Made by a program: the position numbers and the translations under genes. DNA of 64,000 nt from Leucoraja erinacea (Eukaryota), in assembly GCF_028641065.1 (NCBI RefSeq), contig NC_073405.1, positions 19,902,001-19,966,000 of the forward strand, read 5' to 3'. The stretch's first letter is position 1. Each line of letters opens with the position of its first letter. The notes under the pieces are model-generated. The model saw only the letters and a list, made by a program, of their open reading frames with translations. It was not told the DNA's origin and searched no databases. Below, in pieces: positions 1 to 54,662 of the stretch.

Positions 1-135
1 TGAAATGGGGGGACTATGTATAAACACTGCTGTAATTTCTACATGGTGAAACCAATATGTATAAAAATGGTCTTTATTAAAATCTGACAATGTGCACTTT
101 AACCACATGTGTCCCAAACATTATGGAGGGCACTG
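1..135 (+). mobile_element. Right terminal inverted repeat of a Tc1/mariner element (same family as 30147-31425), cut by the window edge
   Basis: Ends ...gtcccaaacattatggagggcactg followed by TA (136-137); closely matches 31222-31425 apart from an internal deletion. Confidence 0.85.
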
Positions 136-137
136 TA

Positions 138-330
138 CCTCGTCTGGCAGCGTGTTCCATACACTCACCACCCTTTGTGTGAAAATGTTACCCTTCAGAT
201 TCCGATTAAATCTTTTCCCCTTCACCTTGAACCTATGTCCTCTGGTCCTCGATTCCCCTACTCGAGGCAAGAGATTCTATGCATCTACCCGATCTATTCC
301 TCTCATGGACTTGGTTTACACATCTCATCA
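138..330 (-). mobile_element. CR1 LINE 3' fragment
   Basis: Reverse complement gives the CR1 RT C-terminal pattern (...TQRVVSVWN...), seen repeatedly in this window. Confidence 0.7.
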
Positions 331-603
331 GAGGTAGGGCCCTGAAGGTTCGTTTTTGCTGTGGTTAATTTAGCCTCTGTAAATTTGCTACCTGCAGGAA
401 AGAGAGAGGAACAGTTAGAAAAGATTTATTGATCAGAATTGTCAACCCGACAAACCTCTCTGATTAAAATCTATCTAAATTTGGGTAGATTATTGAAGAA
501 TCTAACTGCTGCGGATTGCACAGATCTGCAGTTTGCGACCATGGATTTTTGGCTCCGGGATTCCTTGATGTCAGTTTCTTGGTCCCATTATGTTGTCACC
601 TGC

Positions 604-797
604 AGTAACTCAGTGGGACAGACAGCATCTCTGGAGAGAAGGAATGGGAGATGTTTCGGATTGAGACCCTTCTTCAGACGGGCTCGACCAGAAACGTCGC
701 CCATTCCTTCTCTCCAGAGATGCGGGCTGTCCCACTTAGTTAGTGCAGCTTTTTGTGTCTAAGGTTTAAACCAGCATTTGCAGTTCCTTCCTGCACA
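604..797. mobile_element. Penelope-derived inverted (fold-back) terminal repeat fragment
   Basis: gtaactcag...gcatctctggaga...cccttcttcag followed by its reverse complement and the ...ccagcatttgcagttccttcc tail. Confidence 0.7.
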
Positions 798-1622
798 TTA
801 TGTGACCTGCACCGGCTGAGAAAGAATGAATGGATTAGAACATGAGACATAAAGCAGGAGTAAATATCAGCTATGATTTATATGATATGAATCTATTTTG
901 TGTTGTTGGAGCCGTTCTTCATTCCAGAAAGAGAAAGTCATTCCACGAGAGCTTAATTCCAAGCCTCATTTGTTGCTGAGTTGATATAATAGTTCTGGAG
1001 GAACAAGGGGTAAAAATTGCATAACACCCAGGTAAACCCAGATAGAGGTGCAGCGTGGAAACAGGCCCATCGGCCCACCGCCCCGGCCAACAATCCCTTT
1101 TCTCTTGCATTATCCTGCACATGTGGATGAATTTTCGAGTTTGCGTTTAGTTTATTATTTTCACAAGTACCGAGGTACAATGAAAAGCTTTTGTTGCCTG
1201 CCAACCAATTAGCTGAAAGGCAATACATGATTAAAATCGAGCCATTCACAGTGTACAAATACGTGATGGTGGGAATAATGTTTAGTGCAAGATAAAGCCA
1301 CTAAAGTCCAATTAAAGATAGAAAATACAGAAAATAGGTGCAGGAGGAGGCCATTCGGCCCTTCGAGCCAGCATCGCCAAATCCTAGTGTCTCCAATGAG
1401 GAAGTTGGTAGTTCAAGACTGCTCTCTGGTTGTTGGTAGGATGGTTCAGTTGCCCGATAACAGCTGGTAAGAAACTGTATCTAAAGCTGGAGGTGTGCGT
1501 TTTCACACTTCTATACCTTTTGCCCGATGGGAGTGGGGAGAAGTGGGAGTGACCAGGGTGCGACTCTGCCTTTATGCTGGTGGCCTTGCCGAGGCAGCAT
1601 GAGGTGTAAATGGAGTCGATCT

Positions 1623-1815
1623 TTACCAAAGTCAACTAACCTACAAACCTGTACATCTTTGGAGAGTGGGAGGAAACCGGAGCACCTGGGGAAAACCCAC
1701 ACGGTCTCGGGGAGAACGTACAAACTCCGTACAGACAGCATCTGTAGTCAGAATAGAACCCGTGTCTCTGGGGCTGTAAGGGCAGCAACTCCACTGCTGC
1801 TCTACCATGCCGCCC
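1623..1815 (-). mobile_element. HE1-type V-SINE (5' part)
   Basis: Reverse complement of tRNA-like head and V-domain (ggagtttgtacgttctcccc...ctccggtttcctccc). Confidence 0.8.
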
Positions 1816-2294
1816 CAGTTATAAGCACAGTATTTTCATGGTTAGTATTGTTAACTTTCTGAGTCATTGGCAACCTCCAGGATGATGGGGATTTCCGTTC
1901 TCCACTGGACAGTGATTGGGAAGAATTGTGCAAATGTATATAATGGGCATTCGCTATGGATCCTGTCATACTTCACAGTACCTTATAAAAACAAACAGCT
2001 TTTTTGGTGCTGTTAGCTTTTAAGCAAGAAAACAGGACAGGAGGCCTGGGGTTAGAGCAGTGATTACAGAAGTAATTCTTCACATATAGGGGTGATCAAT
2101 ACCTGTAATTGATTTCTGGCTGCAAGAGTGGAATCATTTGAATCCAGTAACAACTGATGTTGTGGTTAGCAGGCTGTGCACTCTTTCAAGACAGATGAGC
2201 TAGCGTTGGACAAACGACCTTGAATATTGTGGTAAAAGAGCAATAAAAAGTTTATTTCAGTACGTTGGCACAAGTCTGATGTCCTAATTTCCTA

Positions 2295-2803
2295 GGCTCA
2301 CGTGATTTCCCGGTTGCCAAGCACTTTAACTCCCCTTCTCATTACCACACTGACCTTCCTGTCCTGCCCTCCTCCACTGTCTGAGTGAGACCACAGGCAA
2401 ATTGGAGGAACAGCACCTCATATTTCTCCTCGGTACCTTACAACCCAGTGGTATGAGTATTGATTTCTCTAATTCCAATTAACCCTTGCATTCCCCTCTC
2501 TCTCCATCCTTCACCCACCCTAGTCGTCCTGCTAGTTACGCTGTTCGTATCCCCCTCATTATCACCTCCTCCACAGCCAACAATGGACCATTGTGGGCTC
2601 TTTAGCCTTCGGTGCCGACTCTGATTTGTTCCGTAATGTGTCATACCTCTAGTTTCCCTCTCCCCCGACTCTCAGTCTGAAGAAGGGTCCGACCCGAAAT
2701 GTCACCTATTCCTTTTCTCCAGAGATGCTGCCTGACCCACTGAGTTACTCCAGCATTTTATGGCAATCTTCGGTGTAAACTAGCATCTGCAGTACCGTCC
2801 TAA
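2295..2803 (+). mobile_element. Penelope-like element 3' fragment: GIY-YIG C-terminus plus terminal repeat
   Basis: Reads PVAKHFNSPSH...KLEEQHLIF.LGTLQPSGM.IDFSN across a frameshift, then ctgaagaagggtc..cccgaaa and the shared tail. Confidence 0.8.
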
Positions 2804-3282
2804 AATTCTAAGCATAGTCCCAGCCCCTGAGCAGGAGCAGGTGAAGGCATGCATCATCTAGTCCCTTGCTTCAGCGGTTTGTTCCATCTTACCTGTAGCA
2901 GAGTACCAAGACAACTACTCAAACCAGTTGGCTTTCACTGGTATTTAAGCTCGAGTGAGTCCCCAACTTTGTTCCTTCCTCATAACCTAGCTGCATCTCC
3001 TTTTATTTTATCACTGCCTATTTTTTCTGGCTTCCCCTTAAACCTGTTTGCCTCACTTGCTCCATATGTCAGCGAGTTTCTGCCAATCTCCAGATCCCAG
3101 TGACTGTCACTAGTTCCAGGGCATGGTCCAATTTGGCAAAAATAAACTTTTAAGTTGACAGCCATATTAACCGCTAAAGCAGTGTGTTGATTTCTGCTAC
3201 TTATTGGAGCAGGTTGAATGCACTTGTTCTCTCTAATGCGCACAAGCTGGGGTACAGGTCCTTCCTCCTCACTTCCAACCCC

Positions 3283-3506
3283 CTCATTCACACAAAGGGT
3301 GGTGAGTGTCTGGAACAAGCTGCCAGAGGAGGTAGTTGAGGCTGGGACTATCCCAACGTTTAAGAAGCAGTTAGACAGGTATGTGGGTAGGACTTGGAGG
3401 GATATGGACCAAGCGCAGGCAGGTGGGTCTACTGCGGCTGGTACATGTTGGGCGGTGTGGGCAAGTTGGTCTGAAGGGATCTGTTTCCACACTGTATCAC
3501 TATGAC
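3283..3506 (+). mobile_element. CR1 LINE 3' end
   Basis: FTQRVVSVWNKLPEEVVEAGTIPTFKKQLDRY in ORF 3218..3505, then the 3' UTR shared with the HE1 tail. Confidence 0.85.
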
Positions 3507-4868
3507 TCTTCCCTTGACTCTGCCAATTCACTTAAGAATGCTCCACCTCAACTTCCTTCGACCTTTTTGCAGACCGCTTCCCTCTGTGGGTCAGTATCCA
3601 GTCTCCAGCTCCTGGTCCAAAGCATGCACCAGTTTTGACTCCCGGCCACTTCCCCACGTCACTCCCCCACCACACTTGGCTATGTCCCCCTCGCATTTCC
3701 ATGGGATGACCGGCCCTACAGCATCGGTACACAGCTTGTCTGCCCATGTCCCAGGCCGCACATCATCTGCGTGTCTGTCTGTCCACATTCCCAGCCATCA
3801 TCTGTCCGCACACCCAAGCGCTTCCAGCCAATCTCTATCCACTGCCCACATTCCCGTCCCTGACCTTCCTGCACCCTGGACCATGTCCATGGCTACATCG
3901 GTCGGCACCCCTGCTAACATTCCCAGCCTCACTTCATCCACCAATCTTCCCCCAAGACCAGTCACACTCCATCCTCCTGCCTGCCCCCATCCCTGACCGT
4001 GATCCATCTGCAGCCCGGTTCACATTCTCATCCCCAAACTTCGTTGGGAGACATCCTTTGGGGTTGACATGAGGAGCAGTGCTCTCAGTAAAGCAATTCC
4101 TGTTGCATTCCTATTTGGGTTTATTAATGGTCCTGGTATCCGTGGCCATAGCTGTAGATCCTGTTAATGTGCGTCTGTCTCTCTACTTTATGTTCAGAGA
4201 CAGGATCCAGAATTCTGCAAAGCACATTTCAAAAGTACGTGCTAAAACAGTGTGCCGGTTCACGCGCCGTGGCTAGAATCAGATGTCAGCATTTTGTGGT
4301 ACGGATACCCGTGTTCGCAATGGCTGTGGAGATAAGAAAGACATGCTTGTTCACACTGTGAGACTCTCAACTAACAGAGGGAGACACATGCAGCATACCT
4401 TGTACCGGATTTTATTAACTAGACGTGGAGCTCCTCTTGATGGGAATGTGTGTCAGAGGTCAGGCCACAGCACAGCAAAGCCTGTTCTGTAAACCTGCAG
4501 AGTTTCAGCAAAGCTTCACGTTGGAAGCAAAATGGTTCCTGGAGTCTGACATGCACTGAGATATTTTGATGTAACAATGTGCTTCACGAATGTTAGCCTG
4601 ACGCCAGTAACAATTTATTAGTTCAACTAAGCTCCACATTAGAATTAGCATTTCTGGTAAACACACAGTAATTCAAGAACGCAGTGCTGATTTGCTGAAG
4701 GTTTCATTTTATTTTACTTACCAACGTATGAAATCACGATTTTCACCGTCCCTATCACTCCTCTTACTTCTTTTCTGTGTTATGCTTTTTCAAGCAGTGA
4801 CCAGTCTTTGTGACCTTGTTCAAAAAGGCTTTATTGATCTGGAAGCCAATAAACAATGAGCAATACAT

Positions 4869-5107
4869 GCAGAGACCTGCGTTCGATCCTGGCTACGGGA
4901 TTTAGTACGTTCTCCCCATGACCACGTGGGGTTTTTCCGGATGCTCCGGTTTCCTCCCGCACTCCAAAGGTGTACAGGTTTGAAGGTTAAATTACTTTGG
5001 TAAATTGAAAAATTGTCCCTGGTGCAGGTGAGGGTTATTGTACGGGGTGATCGCTGGTCTTCGCGGACTGGGTGGGACGAAGGGCCTGTGTCCGCACTGT
5101 ATCTCTG
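4869..5107 (+). mobile_element. HE1-type V-SINE (5'-truncated)
   Basis: B-box-like gttcgatcc, V-domain and gaagggcctgt..cgcactgtatctct tail. Confidence 0.75.
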
Positions 5108-5441
5108 AGGTCAGTGAACCCAGTTCTGACCATTCAAAGCTGCATAACAATCTGGCAGAGGCAATGACTTATTCCTTCAACGTAGGAACATTGAAGCTCG
5201 TTCCAACATCGTCCGAGAGGTTCACCTGCTTTCAGCTTTATCACTTCTTTCTGTTAATTTAATTTCTGTGTATCCAACGTTAAAGGCTAAGACTTGTCTG
5301 TGTCAACAACTAGAGAATTATGCAGATTAATTGCAATTTTGATTACAAGTTGCATTCCAGCCCCCTTGCCTTTGGCCTGCACCAAGTGCCCTACAAATGT
5401 TCTCACTGAGGTATCTTCACCACATTCATCCCTCAACCTTA

Positions 5442-5666
5442 TGCCCCTGTCCCACTTAGGAAACCTGAATGGAAACCTCAGGAGACTTTGTGCGCCACCC
5501 AAGGTTTCCGTGCGGTTCCCAGAGGTTTTTGTCCGTCTCCCTACCTGCTTCCACTACCTGCAACCACCGGCAACCACCTGGAACCTCCGGGAACCGCACA
5601 GAAACCTTGGGTGGGGAGCAAAGTCTCCAGAGGTTTCTGTTCAGGTTTCCTAAGTGGAACAGGGGA
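5442..5666. mobile_element. Fold-back MITE, probably PIF/Harbinger
   Basis: About 90-bp imperfect inverted arms (gcccctgtcccacttaggaaacctgaa... / ...ttcaggtttcctaagtggaacagggg); preceded by TTA; terminus resembles 9816-10360. Confidence 0.7.
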
Positions 5667-6377
5667 GAGCAGATTAAGAAGAGAAAAAAAAACGTCTCTC
5701 CAATGCAGATAGACAGACGTTTATGAATAAGAATTGTAATTGATAATAGGGAGAGCTACAAAACAACGGGTTAACCTGTTTGAACAGCTGATCCTTTGTG
5801 ATGCCTGACATGTGTGGATCAAACCCACTTTTGTGCCAATAGATTTATAAGCCCATGGCTCTCTTTGTATCTTATAAAAAGCTCTATGCTCGGGTCTGTC
5901 CTGAGTAATTAAAAAGCAGGATGGTTATCTTAAGTTCTCTATAATTACTATTAGCTGAAAGCATAATAACCTTTCATTTCAATTTCAATGAAGTGGGGCT
6001 ATGTTTCCATGGTGAAACTATTCGGGAGAACCAGGCAGCGCTGCTGTCCATTCTGTGGGGTGGGGGGGGGGTTTAACACGTATCTTTTCCATGTTAAAAG
6101 CATCCGATGTGCAGCAGAGTGAGCAGTAATGACGGGTGTGTCACGTGGTTAAATTAAATTAGGAACAAGACCATCTGGAGTGGCTGAAACTCCAAGGTCA
6201 GGCAGTCATTCATTGTTCCTGTCCACCCCTGCTTGATTCACAACCTGAACTCAGCTTACAGGCTGTCCATTCATAGCATTGCCTGGCTATGTCAGTGTTT
6301 CACTCCCGCCCTCAACGATAGTGTAGTTTTAACCTTTCCAACGGTTTCTTTATTTTCCCCATCCATCCTTGGCCCTT

Positions 6378-6647
6378 GAGACACAGCGTGGAAAGAAGCA
6401 GGCCCTTCGGCCCACCAAGTCCACGCGGACCAGCGATCACCCATGTACCCTGGCACTATCCTACACGCACTGGGGACAATTTACAATTTTACAGAAGCCA
6501 ATTAACCGACAAACCTGTGCAGCTTTTGGAGTGGGGGAGAGAAAACCGGAGCACCCGGAGAAAAAACACGCAGTCGCAGGGAGAACGTACAAACTCTGTA
6601 CAGACAGAATTGAACCCGGGCCTCTGCCGCTGTAAGGTAGCAACTCC
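6378..6647 (-). mobile_element. HE1-type V-SINE
   Basis: Reverse complement of head, V-domain and tail. Confidence 0.85.
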
Positions 6648-27866: not shown

Positions 27867-28457
27867 TACCTAGGCTCCCTAGTTATGAACTCCTCCATCC
27901 CAAGGCCTGGTCTGGTCTCCAAACACTAGCCCTCTTTCCACTGGATGGAGCTCCATCACACACAAATAGTGTCATCTCAGCTGCTTGCTTTGGTGGGTTC
28001 ACAGGTGAAGTGGTTCTAGTTGAAGCATGCAATGACCAAGACTCAGTACCATTTCCAGGTATGGTATTATTGTCATGTGTGTCAAGATACAGTGAAAATT
28101 TTTACTTTGTGTGCTAACAGGCAAATCATAGCATACGTGAGTACAGTCAAACTACAGACAAGTACAACAGGCAGTGCAAATACAGAAAGGAACCAGCGTG
28201 CAAAATACAGAGAAACTACAGAGAAAGTCTTCTGCCTTCAATAATAGTAAGATTAAACGAGAACTTACCAGTTCGAAGTTTGATCATTATTTTATGAGGA
28301 GTACGTTGAGGGAATACGTGAAGAACCCCGCCAGGACACATGCGTGTCATTCTTCAAAGCAGCGGTGTGAAATCACAGATAACTGTAATGACTTAAACAT
28401 AGTAAGATTAGAGAAGAAATACCAGTTGAGTATATGATCATGGGTGGGAGTGGAGGG

Positions 28458-28569
28458 CACGTATTCCCTCAACGTAGTCCTCATAAAATAACGATCAAAC
28501 TTCGAACTGGTAAGTTCTCGTTTAATCTTACTATTTTACTTCGGAGTCACGTGAGTGACTACGTGAAGA
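28458..28569 (-). repeat. DIRS internal complementary region (ICR)
   Basis: + strand reads the element 3' end joined to its 5' end (...aatcttacta-tttt-acttcggagtcacg...). Confidence 0.9.
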
Positions 28570-28732
28570 TTTCAAAGCTCTGTGATTTCATGCCGTGGAA
28601 ACGAGTCCATGCATCACATCTGCCTTAATGACTGTGGGAGGAATTGTGTCAACATAATTTAGACATGAATCCGACATTGAAATCCATGAAAATTTATTAA
28701 CACAAAATTATAGCCCCTATTTATGGGGTAAA

Positions 28733-29593
28733 TTAAATTACAGAACTTAAAATTGTTTCTGCAAACGTTCCAGGTTTAATGACTGGTTTATGATAAAATA
28801 GTTGGAATGTTTTTTCCCATGACCATCCTGCTGTCTTGAGGATTTGGTCCATTGGTACATCCAACTGCATAGCTGCCGATGTAGCTGCAGCCCTGGTGGA
28901 ATGAGATTTAAAAATATTAGTATCCACCCCAGCCTGTATTAGAACCTGCTTCAGCCATCTTGAGATGGTCTGGACCATCACTTTTTTGTGTGGTTGCTTG
29001 TGGCTGACTAAAAGTGCCTTCTCATTGCCTCTGATGATTTTCGTGTTCTCCATGTATAACAACAAATGTCTTACTATACAGAGACGATCATCTGTTGGGT
29101 AAGACCTAAATTCTATATTGAGGCCTGCTGATCCCTGTCTGTTCTGCTTAACTAATTCATAAATATGAAACGTAATATTTCCAGATGAAGAAGTCATGTT
29201 GTCCAGTCTTAATTTATGTAACGACTGTACCCTTTGTGCCATGACCAAAGCCATTAGCATGACTGTTTTTAATGTCAGTCTATGTAGGGACAGAGCTGTT
29301 GCTGGAGACCAATTCCTGAGCATCGTCAGGACAATACTCACATCCCATATTTGAGAGTACCTGGTTCTTGGGGGATTGGTATTAAAAATTCCCCTCATAA
29401 GTTTTGTTACCAGTGGGTGAGTCCCAACAGAGTGACGCTCTGTTCCTTGCCATAGATAAGTTGATAGGGCACTTCTGGCGCAGTTGATGGCACTATAACT
29501 GAGCCCCTCATCATAATGGAGGCCTGCCAGGAATTCCAGAACAGATGGGATGTTCATTTCTCTGTAGGTGATGCTGTTTTTGTGACAATACAT
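28733..29593 (-). CDS. Tyrosine recombinase of DIRS element (286-aa ORF; frame extends to ATG 29659 through one TAG at 29597-29599)
   Basis: VLEFL...GLSYSAIN.ARSALS core-binding region; catalytic motifs AQRVQSL (R), VKQNR (K), SHSTRAA (HxxR), AGWS (W), FQLFYHK (Y). Confidence 0.9.
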   Translation of the reverse strand: MYCHKNSITYREMNIPSVLEFLAGLHYDEGLSYSAINCARSALSTYLWQGTERHSVGTHPLVTKLMRGIFNTNPPRTRYSQIWDVSIVLTMLRNWSPATALSLHRLTLKTVMLMALVMAQRVQSLHKLRLDNMTSSSGNITFHIYELVKQNRQGSAGLNIEFRSYPTDDRLCIVRHLLLYMENTKIIRGNEKALLVSHKQPHKKVMVQTISRWLKQVLIQAGVDTNIFKSHSTRAAATSAAMQLDVPMDQILKTAGWSWEKTFQLFYHKPVIKPGTFAETILSSVI

Positions 29594-29661
29594 CTCCTAT
29601 TTCCTGATATAGACCAGATACTGTTTTTTGGTGGACTGTCTGTGGGCCGCCAAAATCATGT

Positions 29662-29913
29662 TCACTGTTCGGTCCGTCCCGCCCGCGGCTGCTCAAAGTC
29701 GGACTCATCTGAGTCAACGACTTTGTTGGTTTTTTGTTTTGCCTTACCGCCTGGCCGCGGAGTGGATCTGGCCGGTGCGGAGGCGACATCGGACACAGCT
29801 GATCCCATTATAGGTGATTCATGTGCCGCTGGCCGCTGCTGGCTGCCCGCTACTCCGCGGTCCTCCCCCACTAGCTTTGTCGCAGCCCTCGTTGCTTTCT
29901 TCGATTTGTCCAT
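29662..29913 (-). pseudogene. Truncated ORF1 (gag-position) N-terminus of the DIRS element
   Basis: ATG in good context (gggagcATGG), low-complexity MDKSKKATRAATKLVGED...; runs directly into YR sequence at about 29675. Identity inferred from position only. Confidence 0.55.
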
Positions 29914-30146
29914 GCTCCCCACCTGTAATCAGTATGGGAAACACAAAAAGACCGCAGAGTAACTCTTACCTGCAGGTTCCGGCTTTTAAAACTGCCGCTG
30001 CGGGGGAACGTCGTTCCACCCCGCCTGACTGTTTTGTAGCGATATGACACGCATGCGTCCTGGCGGGGTTCTTCACGTAGTCACTCACGTGACTCCGAAG
30101 TAAAATCATGCTTCATAGTGGATACAAATAAATGTTTTTGTTAATA

Positions 30147-31425
30147 CAGTGCCCTCTCTAATGTTTGGGACAAAGACACATCATTTATTTAATTTCCTCT
30201 GTACTCCACTATTTGAGATTTGTAATAGAAAAAATCATGTGGTTAAAGTGCACACTGTTAGATTTTATTAAAGGCCATTTTTATACATTTTGGTTTCACC
30301 ATGTAGAAATTACAGCTGTGTTTATACATAGTCCCCTCCATTTCAGGGCACCATAATGTTTGGGACACGGCTTTGCAGACGTTTGTAATTGCTCAGGTGT
30401 GTTTAACTATCTCCTCACTGCAGGTAGAAGAGAGCTCTCAGCATCTAGTCTTTCCTCCAGTCTTTCCATCACCTTTGGAAACGTTTGTTGCTGTTTATCA
30501 ACATGAGGATCAAAGTCGTGCCAATGAAAGTCAAAGAAGCAATTATGAGTGAGAATCAACAATAAAACTGTTAGAGACATCAGCCAAACCTTAGGCTTAC
30601 CATAATGAACTGTTTGGGACATCATTAAGAAGAAAGAGAGCACTGGTGAGCTTACTAATCGCAAAGGGATGCAGGCCAAGGAAGACCTCCACAGCTGATG
30701 ATAGAAGAATTCACTATAATAAAGAAAAATCCCCAAACACCTGTCTGACAGATCAGAAACACTCTTCAAGAGTCAGGTGTGGATTTGTCAATAACCACTG
30801 TCTGCAGAAGACTTCATGAACAGAAATATAGAGGCTACACTGCAAGATGCAAACCACTGGTTAGCCGCAAAAATAGGATGGCCAGGTTACAGTTTGCCAA
30901 ACATACTGCTAAAGCGACAAAGCTAAAAAACGGTCAATTCTTGAGTGGCCAAGTCAATCACCCGATCTGAACCCAATTGAACATGCTTTTTATGTGCTGA
31001 GGAGAAAACTGAATGGGACTAGGCCCCTAAACAGGCATAAGCTAAAGATGGCTGCAATACAGGCCGGGCAGAGCATCACCAGAGAAGACACCCAGCAACT
31101 GGTGATGTCCATGAATCGCAGACTTCAAGCAGTCATTGCATGCAAAGGATATGCATCAAAATACTAAACATGACTACTTTCATTTACATGACATTGCTGT
31201 GTCTCAAACATTATGGTGCCCTGAAATGGGGGGGACTATGTATGAACACAGCTGTAATTACTACATGGTAAAACCAAAATGTACAAAAATGACCATGATT
31301 AAAATCTGACAATGTGCACTTTATCCACATGTGATGTTTTTTCTATTGCAAATCATAAAATTGTGTAGTATAGAAGCAAATAAATAAATGATGGGTCTTT
31401 GTCCCAAACATTATGGAGGGCACTG
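30147..31425 (+). mobile_element. Tc1-like IR/DR transposon with defective transposase
   Basis: About 220-bp TIRs with inner direct repeats (ccataatgtttgggaca); TA at 30145-46; remnants TVRDISQTLGL, GRPRKT, TVCRRLHEQ..GYTARCKPLVS..NRMARLQFAK, WPSQSPDLNPIEH; middle of DDE domain deleted, frameshifts. Confidence 0.92.
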
Positions 31426-31766
31426 CATGTCTCATCAACTAGGTAATGGTGCAGTTCACAAATAATTAAAAATCATGAGTAATTGTGTTGATATCTATGC
31501 AAATTATCTCCATTCTAACGATGATTCTGGTTCCACCCTGTTCCATTTGTTCGGGCAAACGCTGGAGGTTGTGATTAAAATCATTTGTATCACATCTTCC
31601 CATATTTCACAAATGTGTCAAGGTGAATCATGCTTGAATCACTCTTATAGTGCAGGGATTGTTCAACACAGGCAATGCATCAACAAACCCCCCTGAAACA
31701 CAGTGCTCTGAGCTCTGCCATGGGAAGAGATTAGAACGCGGACAGAGGATAAGATTCAACGGAAGT

Positions 31767-32902: not shown

Positions 32903-33707
32903 TTTTTTGTTTTTTTTAACAAAACATTTATTCAATTATTAAAAATAATATTTACACTACAATAAAACAAGCCAGAACCCACCACCATAATACAATACAA
33001 ACATGTATCTATAATAAATTACTATACAACTATGTTACAATCCTTATTAAGGATACATTCAACACCCTGCGGAGCCCAGCGGTCCTGGAACTCCCTCAGA
33101 GTGCCCGTAGACAGGGCGTATTCCTTTTCTAACCCCACCCAGGCACGGACGTAACCCCGGAAAAGGGGCAGGCAGCTGGCTCGGGTAGAGCCCTCCACCG
33201 CCTGGCGCCGTGACTCGCGGATGGCCAGCTTGGCCAGGCCCAGGAGCAACCCAACCAGGACATCTTCAGCCCTACCCTCTCCCCTACACACAGGGTGTCC
33301 AAAGATGAGGATGGTGGGTGAAAACTGCAGCCAGAAGGCAAGGAGCAGCCCCTTTAGATATTCAAACAGTGGCTGCAGCCTCACGCACTCCATGTACACG
33401 TGGTACACAGACTCTTCCAGCCCGCAAAAGTGGCAGGCGGCTGGCGAGTCTGTGAACTGCGAGAGAAACAGGTTGCAGGGAACACCTCGGTGCAATACCC
33501 TCCACCCCAGGTCCCCAATGTAAAGGGGGAGAATCCCTGCGTAGAGGGACTGGAAGGCAACACCGACCGCCACTTGGTGTCCGGACGGTGGACCAGGGCG
33601 AGGAAGTGCAGGGTGTGGAGGAGGAGCCTGTACAGGACACGCCTCCCTGCGTCTCGGAGGGAGATGAAGGGTGTCGAGGAAAGGCGGCTCAAATTGTGTG
33701 GGACCGG
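32903..33707 (-). mobile_element. 5'-truncated Tx1-clade LINE (ORF2 C-terminus with CCHC zinc finger, one frameshift)
   Basis: GDLGWRVLH...FTDSPAACHFCGLEESVYHVYMECVRLQPL...LAKLAI closely resembles recalled Tx1 ORF2; AATAAA and A-tail at the left end; TSD ataattcttccctt at 32889-32902 and 33713-33726. Confidence 0.9.
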
Positions 33708-33811
33708 CTATAATAATTCTTCCCTTGGTAGTGGACTGCCTCAGATGTGTGCAATAGCAATGAGATTTCTTCCTCAAGAAACAGAACTCTGCCATATATA
33801 ATTCTTCCCTT

Positions 33812-53531: not shown

Positions 53532-54383
53532 CAATCAATCAATCAATCAACCTTTATTGTCATCTTGCAAGCAACAGTTGTACAGTGCAAAATGAAAAGA
53601 CGTTTCCCAGGGAATACCGGAGCATCGCACATGAAATTTAAAACATTTCACACATAATAACACTAAAAACAATCCAGTCCCTGATGGAACAGTATAAATA
53701 GTTAAAAGCAGGTAAAACAACAACGTTAAAATACAATAAACCAATCATAAAAATGTCCGGGGCAGCTGATTTGAGTGGCCAGTGCCAGTTATTAAAGTGT
53801 CCGTGCCAAGCCGCAGAATCAAGTGACTGTGAGTACTGAGTGACTGTTTAGCAGCCTCACAGCCTGTGGTAGGAAGCTGTTTAGCAGTCTTGTAGTCCGG
53901 GCTTTGATGCTTCGATATCTCTTGCCTGATGGCAGGAGATCCAGGTGTATGTGGAGGGGGTGCAGCTTGTCCTTAGCAATTCTCTGAGCTTTTTTCAGAC
54001 AGCGGCTCTGGAACAGTTCTTGTACCGAGGGTAGGGAGACGCCAATGATCCTCTCTGCTCCCCTCACTACCCTCTGCAGAGCCTTCCTGTCCGAGCAGTT
54101 GCAGGTGGAGTACCACGTATTTATGCAGTACGTGAGTACAGACTCCACCGTACCCCTGTAGAAAGTCCTGAGGATGTTGGTGGGGAGTGAGGCCTGTTTT
54201 AGTTTCCTCAGGAAGTGCAGTCGCTGATGGGCCCGTTTGACGGTCCCAGTGGTGTTCCTGGACCAGGTGAGGCTGTCTGTAATTTGCACACCGAGGAACT
54301 TTATGCTCTCCACTCTCTCCACTGTAGTGCCACTGATGTTGAGGGGTGTATGCTTTGGCTGCGCCCTCCTGAAGTCGACAATA
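53532..54383 (-). mobile_element. 5'-truncated, young Rex1/Babar-like LINE (open RT C-terminal, DUF1891-type region)
   Basis: IVDFRR...VERVESIKFLGVQITDSLTWS...AHQRLHFLRKLK...FYRGTVESVLTYCI..WY...LLPSGKRYRSI uninterrupted in ORF 53819..54439; 3' UTR ends aataaagg(ttga)n. Confidence 0.9.
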
Positions 54384-54384
54384 T

Positions 54385-54662
54385 AGATAGAAACAGGCCC
54401 TTCAGCCCAACAAGTCCACACTGACCAGCAATCTACCATACACCAGTTCTATCCTAAACGCCAGGGACAATTTGCAGAAGCCAATTAACCTACAAACCTA
54501 CACTTCTTTCGGATGTGGGTGAAACCGGATAACCGGCGAAAACCCATATGGTCATAGGGAGAATGTACAAATTCTGTACAGACAGCACCCGTAGTCAGGA
54601 TCAAATCTGGATCTGTGGTGCTGTAAGGCAGCAACTCTACTGCTGCGCCACCGTGCCACCCC
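54385..54662 (-). mobile_element. HE1-type V-SINE
   Basis: Reverse complement, head ends at ...cgtgccaccc. Confidence 0.85.

Follow-up and report, generated by a model that had tools for sequence, protein, structure and literature searches.

The window, by which we mean the whole 64,000-nt stretch of Leucoraja erinacea DNA that was analysed, contains a single copy of a short DIRS1-like element. Its features are as follows.

28243..30106, minus strand: whole element, 1864 bp, with ATT at both ends (repeat map and jump in depth from flank to interior).
30044..30106, minus strand: left terminus, composed of a divergent ITR part (30080-30106) and a conserved ITR part (30044-30079) (repeat map).
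29914..30043, minus strand: 5' leader, rich in CpG and containing a splice-donor-like motif (29969) (sequence).
29662..29913, minus strand: ORF1 (gag) stub of 83 codons, ATG at 29913, stop at 29664-29662.
29678..29679, no strand: deletion junction (end of the gag likeness, start of the recombinase-side likeness, contig ends at 29678 in two runs, length of the complete relative L001).
28733..29659, minus strand: tyrosine recombinase frame with SAM-like and catalytic domains, 308 codons from the first ATG (Pfam PF00589 and alignment).
29597..29599, minus strand: stop interrupting the recombinase frame at codon 21, particular to this copy.
28793..29233, minus strand: catalytic residues R (29233-31), K (29149-47), H (28903-01), R (28894-92), W (28825-23) and Y (28795-93).
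28533..28569, minus strand: left ICR, complementary to the element's first 37 bases (repeat map).
28458..28535, minus strand: right ICR, complementary to the element's last 78 bases (repeat map).
28243..28350, minus strand: right terminus, composed of the ITR (28350 to about 28289) and a right extension, 83% like the 3' end of L001.

Ends and coding sequences

The first-pass annotation had placed a 1863-bp element at 28243..30105; the element is real, though one base longer, ending at 30106. The ITRs and ICR that it reported were both mapped, and the two ICR halves match both ends. The conserved ITR part pairs with 28315-28350 with one mismatch in 36 bases, the left ICR matches 30070-30106 with none in 37 and the right ICR matches 28243-28320 with two in 78. 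Together this is 3 mismatches over 151 bases, in agreement with the earlier figure of 3 in about 150. The description of the element as young holds in moderation: the repeats are 2% apart, yet several of its substitutions are found in almost no other copy.

The ICR halves overlap in the 3-base circular junction (28533-28535), and the ICR mimics the junction of a circle. This is the arrangement given for DIRS1-like elements, in which the ICR is complementary to both ends and its halves overlap in the circular junction (PMC3266345; here and below, published systems are described from parts of the papers cited). After reverse transcription the ends are restored from the ICR, which is indispensable, and DIRS integration is believed to proceed by exchange of the trinucleotide at the junction with one in the genome (PMC7192593; PMC3266345). 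ATT stands at 30106-30104 and again at 28245-28243, and no longer target duplication was found, judging from the element sequence rather than from an empty site. The repeat search gave only inverted repeats and short fragments, with none of the split direct repeats that are the hallmark of Ngaro and PAT elements. The 3' 358 bases fold with a z-score of -21, a value equalled by none of 100 shuffles. The observed/expected CpG ratio is 1.0-1.15 in 28243-28600 and 29660-30106 and 0.25 in the recombinase frame.

The closest published termini are of the mollusc type. LgDIRS3 and AcaDIRS2 (Piednoel et al. 2011, PMC3266345, Table 3) share with the present element an ATT start, an ATT end and an AAT circular junction, and the mollusc entries there have the same conserved ITR of 36 bases and the same HSTR motif. 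The ICR halves differ in length, being 37 and 78 bases here and 42-86 and 44-88 in those two elements. The elements in that table are 3793-6283 bp long, as against 1864 bp here, where pol is absent and the recombinase broken.

The recombinase frame gives a match to Pfam PF00589 above the cut-off. All six of the R-K-HxxR-W-Y residues, which had been reported as present, were confirmed in an alignment of 17 sequences, where they are invariant or nearly so; they are positions 122, 150, 232, 235, 258 and 268 of the 287-aa recombinase frame and HxxR reads HSTR. The best named match is a little-skate protein (67%). The earlier statement that the element keeps its recombinase is right for the sequence and wrong for an intact gene, as it overlooked the in-frame stop at 29599-29597. 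This is codon 21 of 308 and lies within the N-terminal SAM-like domain. The stop is absent from other copies, leaving a residual of 1 and 0 single-copy units in two DNA runs.

The gag stub, previously given as about 80 codons, has 83. Over 80 residues it shares 74% identity with the N-terminus of a 244-aa protein, whose C-terminal part in turn matches gag from a complete DIRS1-like element (E 4e-12). Codons 1-79 are gag-like and the likeness to the 244-aa relative ends at codon 79; the last five codons and the stop likely derive from the old pol frame. No short homologue of the stub was found, the exact stub was absent from the collection searched and 1.84 billion representatives gave just two matches, a weak hint against other stubs, since these collections contain little DNA of this host. 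Just before the gag ATG, 29972-29923 (minus) holds a strong putative splice-donor motif (29969) and, behind it, 47 bases from GT to AG that include a pyrimidine run. A related, diverging family retains the donor-like motif, which is absent from the eight invertebrate-type leaders checked.

Other transposon remnants were also noted in the window. A decayed Tc1-type DNA transposon with long inverted repeats and transposase fragments occupies 30144-31428, 40 bases from the 5' end of the element; X24 and X21 each or together contain hundreds of RNA reads that match it. LINE-like 3' fragments lie at 33022-33810 and 53819-54448 (minus), with a weak zf-RVT match and a strong PF09004 match.

The missing pol region

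The four pol proteins of complete relatives gave no tblastn match anywhere in the window at E 1e-3, in line with the earlier description of the element as RT-less. As RT, RNase H and MT are absent and gag is an 83-codon stub, the element does not have the full gag and pol of an autonomous one. The ITR, ICR, ATT ends and DIRS-type recombinase are all present, as the earlier DIRS1-type assignment had it, and structurally the element is a non-autonomous DIRS1 derivative.

A metagenome scan gave 52 loci. One of them, L001, is a complete DIRS1-like element, 5389 bp long, with ATT ends and open frames for gag (482 aa), pol (717 aa, RVT_1) and recombinase (335 aa). Its recombinase is 45% identical to that of the present element, its right ICR and 3' end are 83% alike and its pol frame is one base off the recombinase frame. 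As the ends of L001 are homologous to those found here, its length implies that about 3.5 kb is missing from the present element.

The first-pass annotation had seen an abrupt join at about 29675. The join is real and is best placed 3-4 bases away, at 29679|29678, because the gag likeness ends at codon 79 and the recombinase-side likeness starts at about 29678. The two sides share at most 1-2 bases. The break lies 19 bases upstream of the recombinase ATG, and the gag stub runs in frame into the old pol stop, which leaves 2 bases between this stop and the first ATG of the recombinase. Where relatives have a long pol frame (five cases), it is offset by one base from that of the recombinase, and it is in this pol frame that the stub terminates here.

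Fourteen of the loci had both ends recognisable (four of the 14 being one element in four assemblies), and an RT core was present in 11 and absent from three. Two loci, L052 (1902-4249) and L044 (275-4629), have a common insertion site, with about 270 bases of flank alike, and carry different internal deletions. L052 lacks 2.0 kb that L044 keeps, RT included, so that gag codon 86 is joined to late pol; about 80 gag codons are kept and the recombinase is broken. The comparison indicates that one deletion in place can yield the layout of a gag stub without RT. Another locus, L035, has a 760-base inverted duplication (90-852 and 3078-3864) in a DIRS-ended, RT-less stretch with only the second half of a recombinase. 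Viral contigs gave no relative by protein, alignment or terminal motif, and metagenome contigs gave no exact match to the 24-base terminal motif.

Copies in sequencing runs

The sequence of the element is present in 20 of the 24 public runs listed, from four organisms that are probably skates, and in run X1 8384 of 35326 records are at 99% identity or more. The flank depth is 39.6 and 18.5 in two DNA runs and the summed depth inside the element 1e4 to 6e6. Summed contig depth is not a copy number (the bounds from the junction bin, about 80-6500, are rough), and its high value on both sides of the junction implies a large family for both halves of the element. The termini (28243-28350, 28458-28569 and 30044-30106) have a depth several-fold to about twentyfold that of the interior, in DNA and RNA runs alike. 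This is more than double presence would give, and the ends are likely shared with other families or with shorter elements. At the boundary at 28242 a single-copy flank contig of X1 leaves the match and runs on for 52 other letters, and a contig of X2 enters the element; the two are compatible with an empty and a filled site, although the joint itself does not appear among those listed.

Four runs (two DNA, two RNA) were compared at the junction. The statistic used was the distance from a site to the end of the matched piece, checked on four flank sites. At site 29652, where the statistic covers only contigs with the common letter, the largest distance was 27 letters in both DNA runs (41 and 31 common-letter contigs), and hence no such contig passes 29678. 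At the other 15 recombinase sites listed the distances were 16-69 with a median of 39, falling at or below 27 in 5 of 30 values and at exactly 27 in two.

In simulations on random DNA a value of 27 was obtained in 24/24 runs without junction copies, and 27 or less in 0/24 when all copies carried the junction. With short contigs, a setting with heavy loss of rare contigs, 27 was obtained in 20/28 runs without junction copies as against 2/28 when all carried it, and still in 25 of 56 runs at junction shares of 20-50%. The two settings bracket the observed interior median and neither matches it exactly.

RNA run X21 (organism D) has 11 reads at 29652 and a mean depth of 1.4 on the gag side. In organism B the RNA depth stays level from one side of the junction to the other and favours neither reading; nor does mean depth in the junction bin tell them apart. 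No piece spanning the junction is among the 16 of 60508 pieces listed. The lack of loose ends at the junction was considered as support for a shared junction and dropped, as it concerns 24 of 1437 such ends and short contigs rarely yield them. Given that contigs end at 29678 in both DNA runs, together with the simulations and the X21 RNA, most relatives likely continue differently at the junction, presumably as full-length elements.

Origin of the short element

We consider it probable that the element is a copy of an abundant DIRS1-like retrotransposon from which about 3.5 kb was lost, that the deletion is confined to this locus or to a small minority of copies and that the recombinase is a passenger. 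Its arrival would have followed the normal DIRS route, RNA being copied into cDNA and the ends rebuilt on the ICR. Known DIRS biology suggests that a recombinase would then have exchanged the trinucleotide at the junction with an ATT of the genome, the proteins for this route coming from full-length relatives. The deletion may well have taken place at the locus after insertion; that it came earlier and was followed by limited copying in trans is somewhat less likely. Of the origins proposed in the first-pass annotation, the evidence leans towards a one-off deletion, on account of the broken recombinase, the barrier at the junction and the layout of L052, with a small copied lineage also possible. 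The tidiness of the breakpoint, 19 bases before the recombinase ATG, looks unlike a random deletion and counts against this reading.

The same breakpoint speaks for a semi-autonomous family, in which the RT-less form would have amplified by borrowing the gag and RT of full-length elements, its own recombinase being under selection and translated by re-initiation after the gag stub. A gag stop and an ATG 2 bases apart would suit such re-initiation, every cis end is retained together with 435 bases of the 5' end, and there is the possible empty site in X1 and filled site in X2. Published work on DIRS-1 bears on this reading from both sides. The DIRS-1 RT is able to act in trans and was so supplied to the engineered trDIRS-1, which like the present element consists of RT-less terminal parts; trDIRS-1, however, which lacks ORF1 and half of ORF2 and ORF3, did not complete transposition (PMC7192593). 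Against such a family stand also the stop codon in this copy's recombinase and the barrier at the junction in two DNA runs.

The recombinase differences do not establish selection after the deletion. Among those listed (40 of 470 rows) 7/16 were synonymous as against an expected 0.22-0.28 (p 0.04-0.13), and the excess, if any, may stem from full-length copies. Of the listed indels inside the element (12 of 40 rows) 0/11 fell in coding sequence, an absence that speaks against the reading as a deleted copy, although it is also explained by selection on full-length copies. The semi-autonomous family proposed earlier is unsupported, with a broken recombinase, most copies differing at the junction and selection on the recombinase not demonstrated, and we judge it unlikely.

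A narrower version, also improbable, is that RT-less elements have spread in skates as a minority subfamily, amounting at most to some 5-15% of copies, with selection preserving their own recombinase. At six recombinase sites a near-constant residual of 243-435 single-copy units remains in X2 (11-15%), and one of 187-1030 in X1 (3-9%). The residual may mark a subfamily with the window's letters at these sites, which would favour amplification of the short form if its copies carry the junction. The changes themselves speak against it: five of the six are non-synonymous, two of these falling where T, S or A is conserved among homologues, and four are CpG decay, which is able to recur.

An assembly artefact joining the two halves of a collapsed repeat is very improbable. 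The repeat is of high copy number and the pieces listed include none across the junction; there is, however, no N near the element, the junction sides have no mis-joining repeat in their 1-2 shared bases and a single-copy contig of X2 runs from the flank into the element end. An equally slight chance is given to a reverse-transcribed, spliced sub-genomic RNA of a full-length element. The donor-like motif at 29969 is kept in a loose end of the related family (X1 29989), but the element retains 290 bases beyond this donor, homologous recombinase sequence at the junction would imply that there is no AG acceptor there and no RNA joint was found among the 15 of 48 joints listed. Least likely of all is the earlier suggestion of a recombinase-only element moving as DNA, like the Cryptons, in which the recombinase is likewise the only enzyme encoded and for which the 3-base repeat at both ends could be the exchange site: Cryptons have no TIRs, ICR or long repeats, carry 4-6 bp direct repeats and use a DNA route (PMC3212892), whereas here the ITR and ICR belong to the retro cycle, the ICR being needed after reverse transcription (PMC7192593), remnants of gag and pol persist, and both the recombinase and the ends are homologous to those of a complete DIRS1-like element.

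Other shortened elements offer partial parallels to the preferred reading of a deleted copy. ORF1-less Ngaro variants in Cafeteria burkhardae (Hackl et al. 2021, PMC8547959) are internally deleted recombinase retrotransposons present at several loci; it is gag that these variants have lost (about 2 kb), and their direct repeats are split, whereas here RT is lost and the ITR and ICR are kept. SIRE, a non-autonomous derivative of VIPER (PMC6681497), consists like the present element of terminal parts without RT, and differs in having no coding capacity. An RT-less DIRS1 family that keeps its recombinase was not found described in the literature searched (a scope that excludes Repbase, Dfam, subscription reviews and supplements), nor was a DIRS-focused study of cartilaginous fish.

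As a deleted copy the element is unremarkable, although its DIRS ends are a clean example from a cartilaginous fish. Should the short form have amplified under selection, it would show what minimal cis sequence suffices for a vertebrate DIRS element, and as an amplified family it would bear on whether DIRS proteins beyond RT act in trans, a question that the Dictyostelium assay leaves unanswered (PMC7192593). The minority subfamily, if true, would represent a natural split in which the recombinase is preferred in cis and reverse transcription works in trans.
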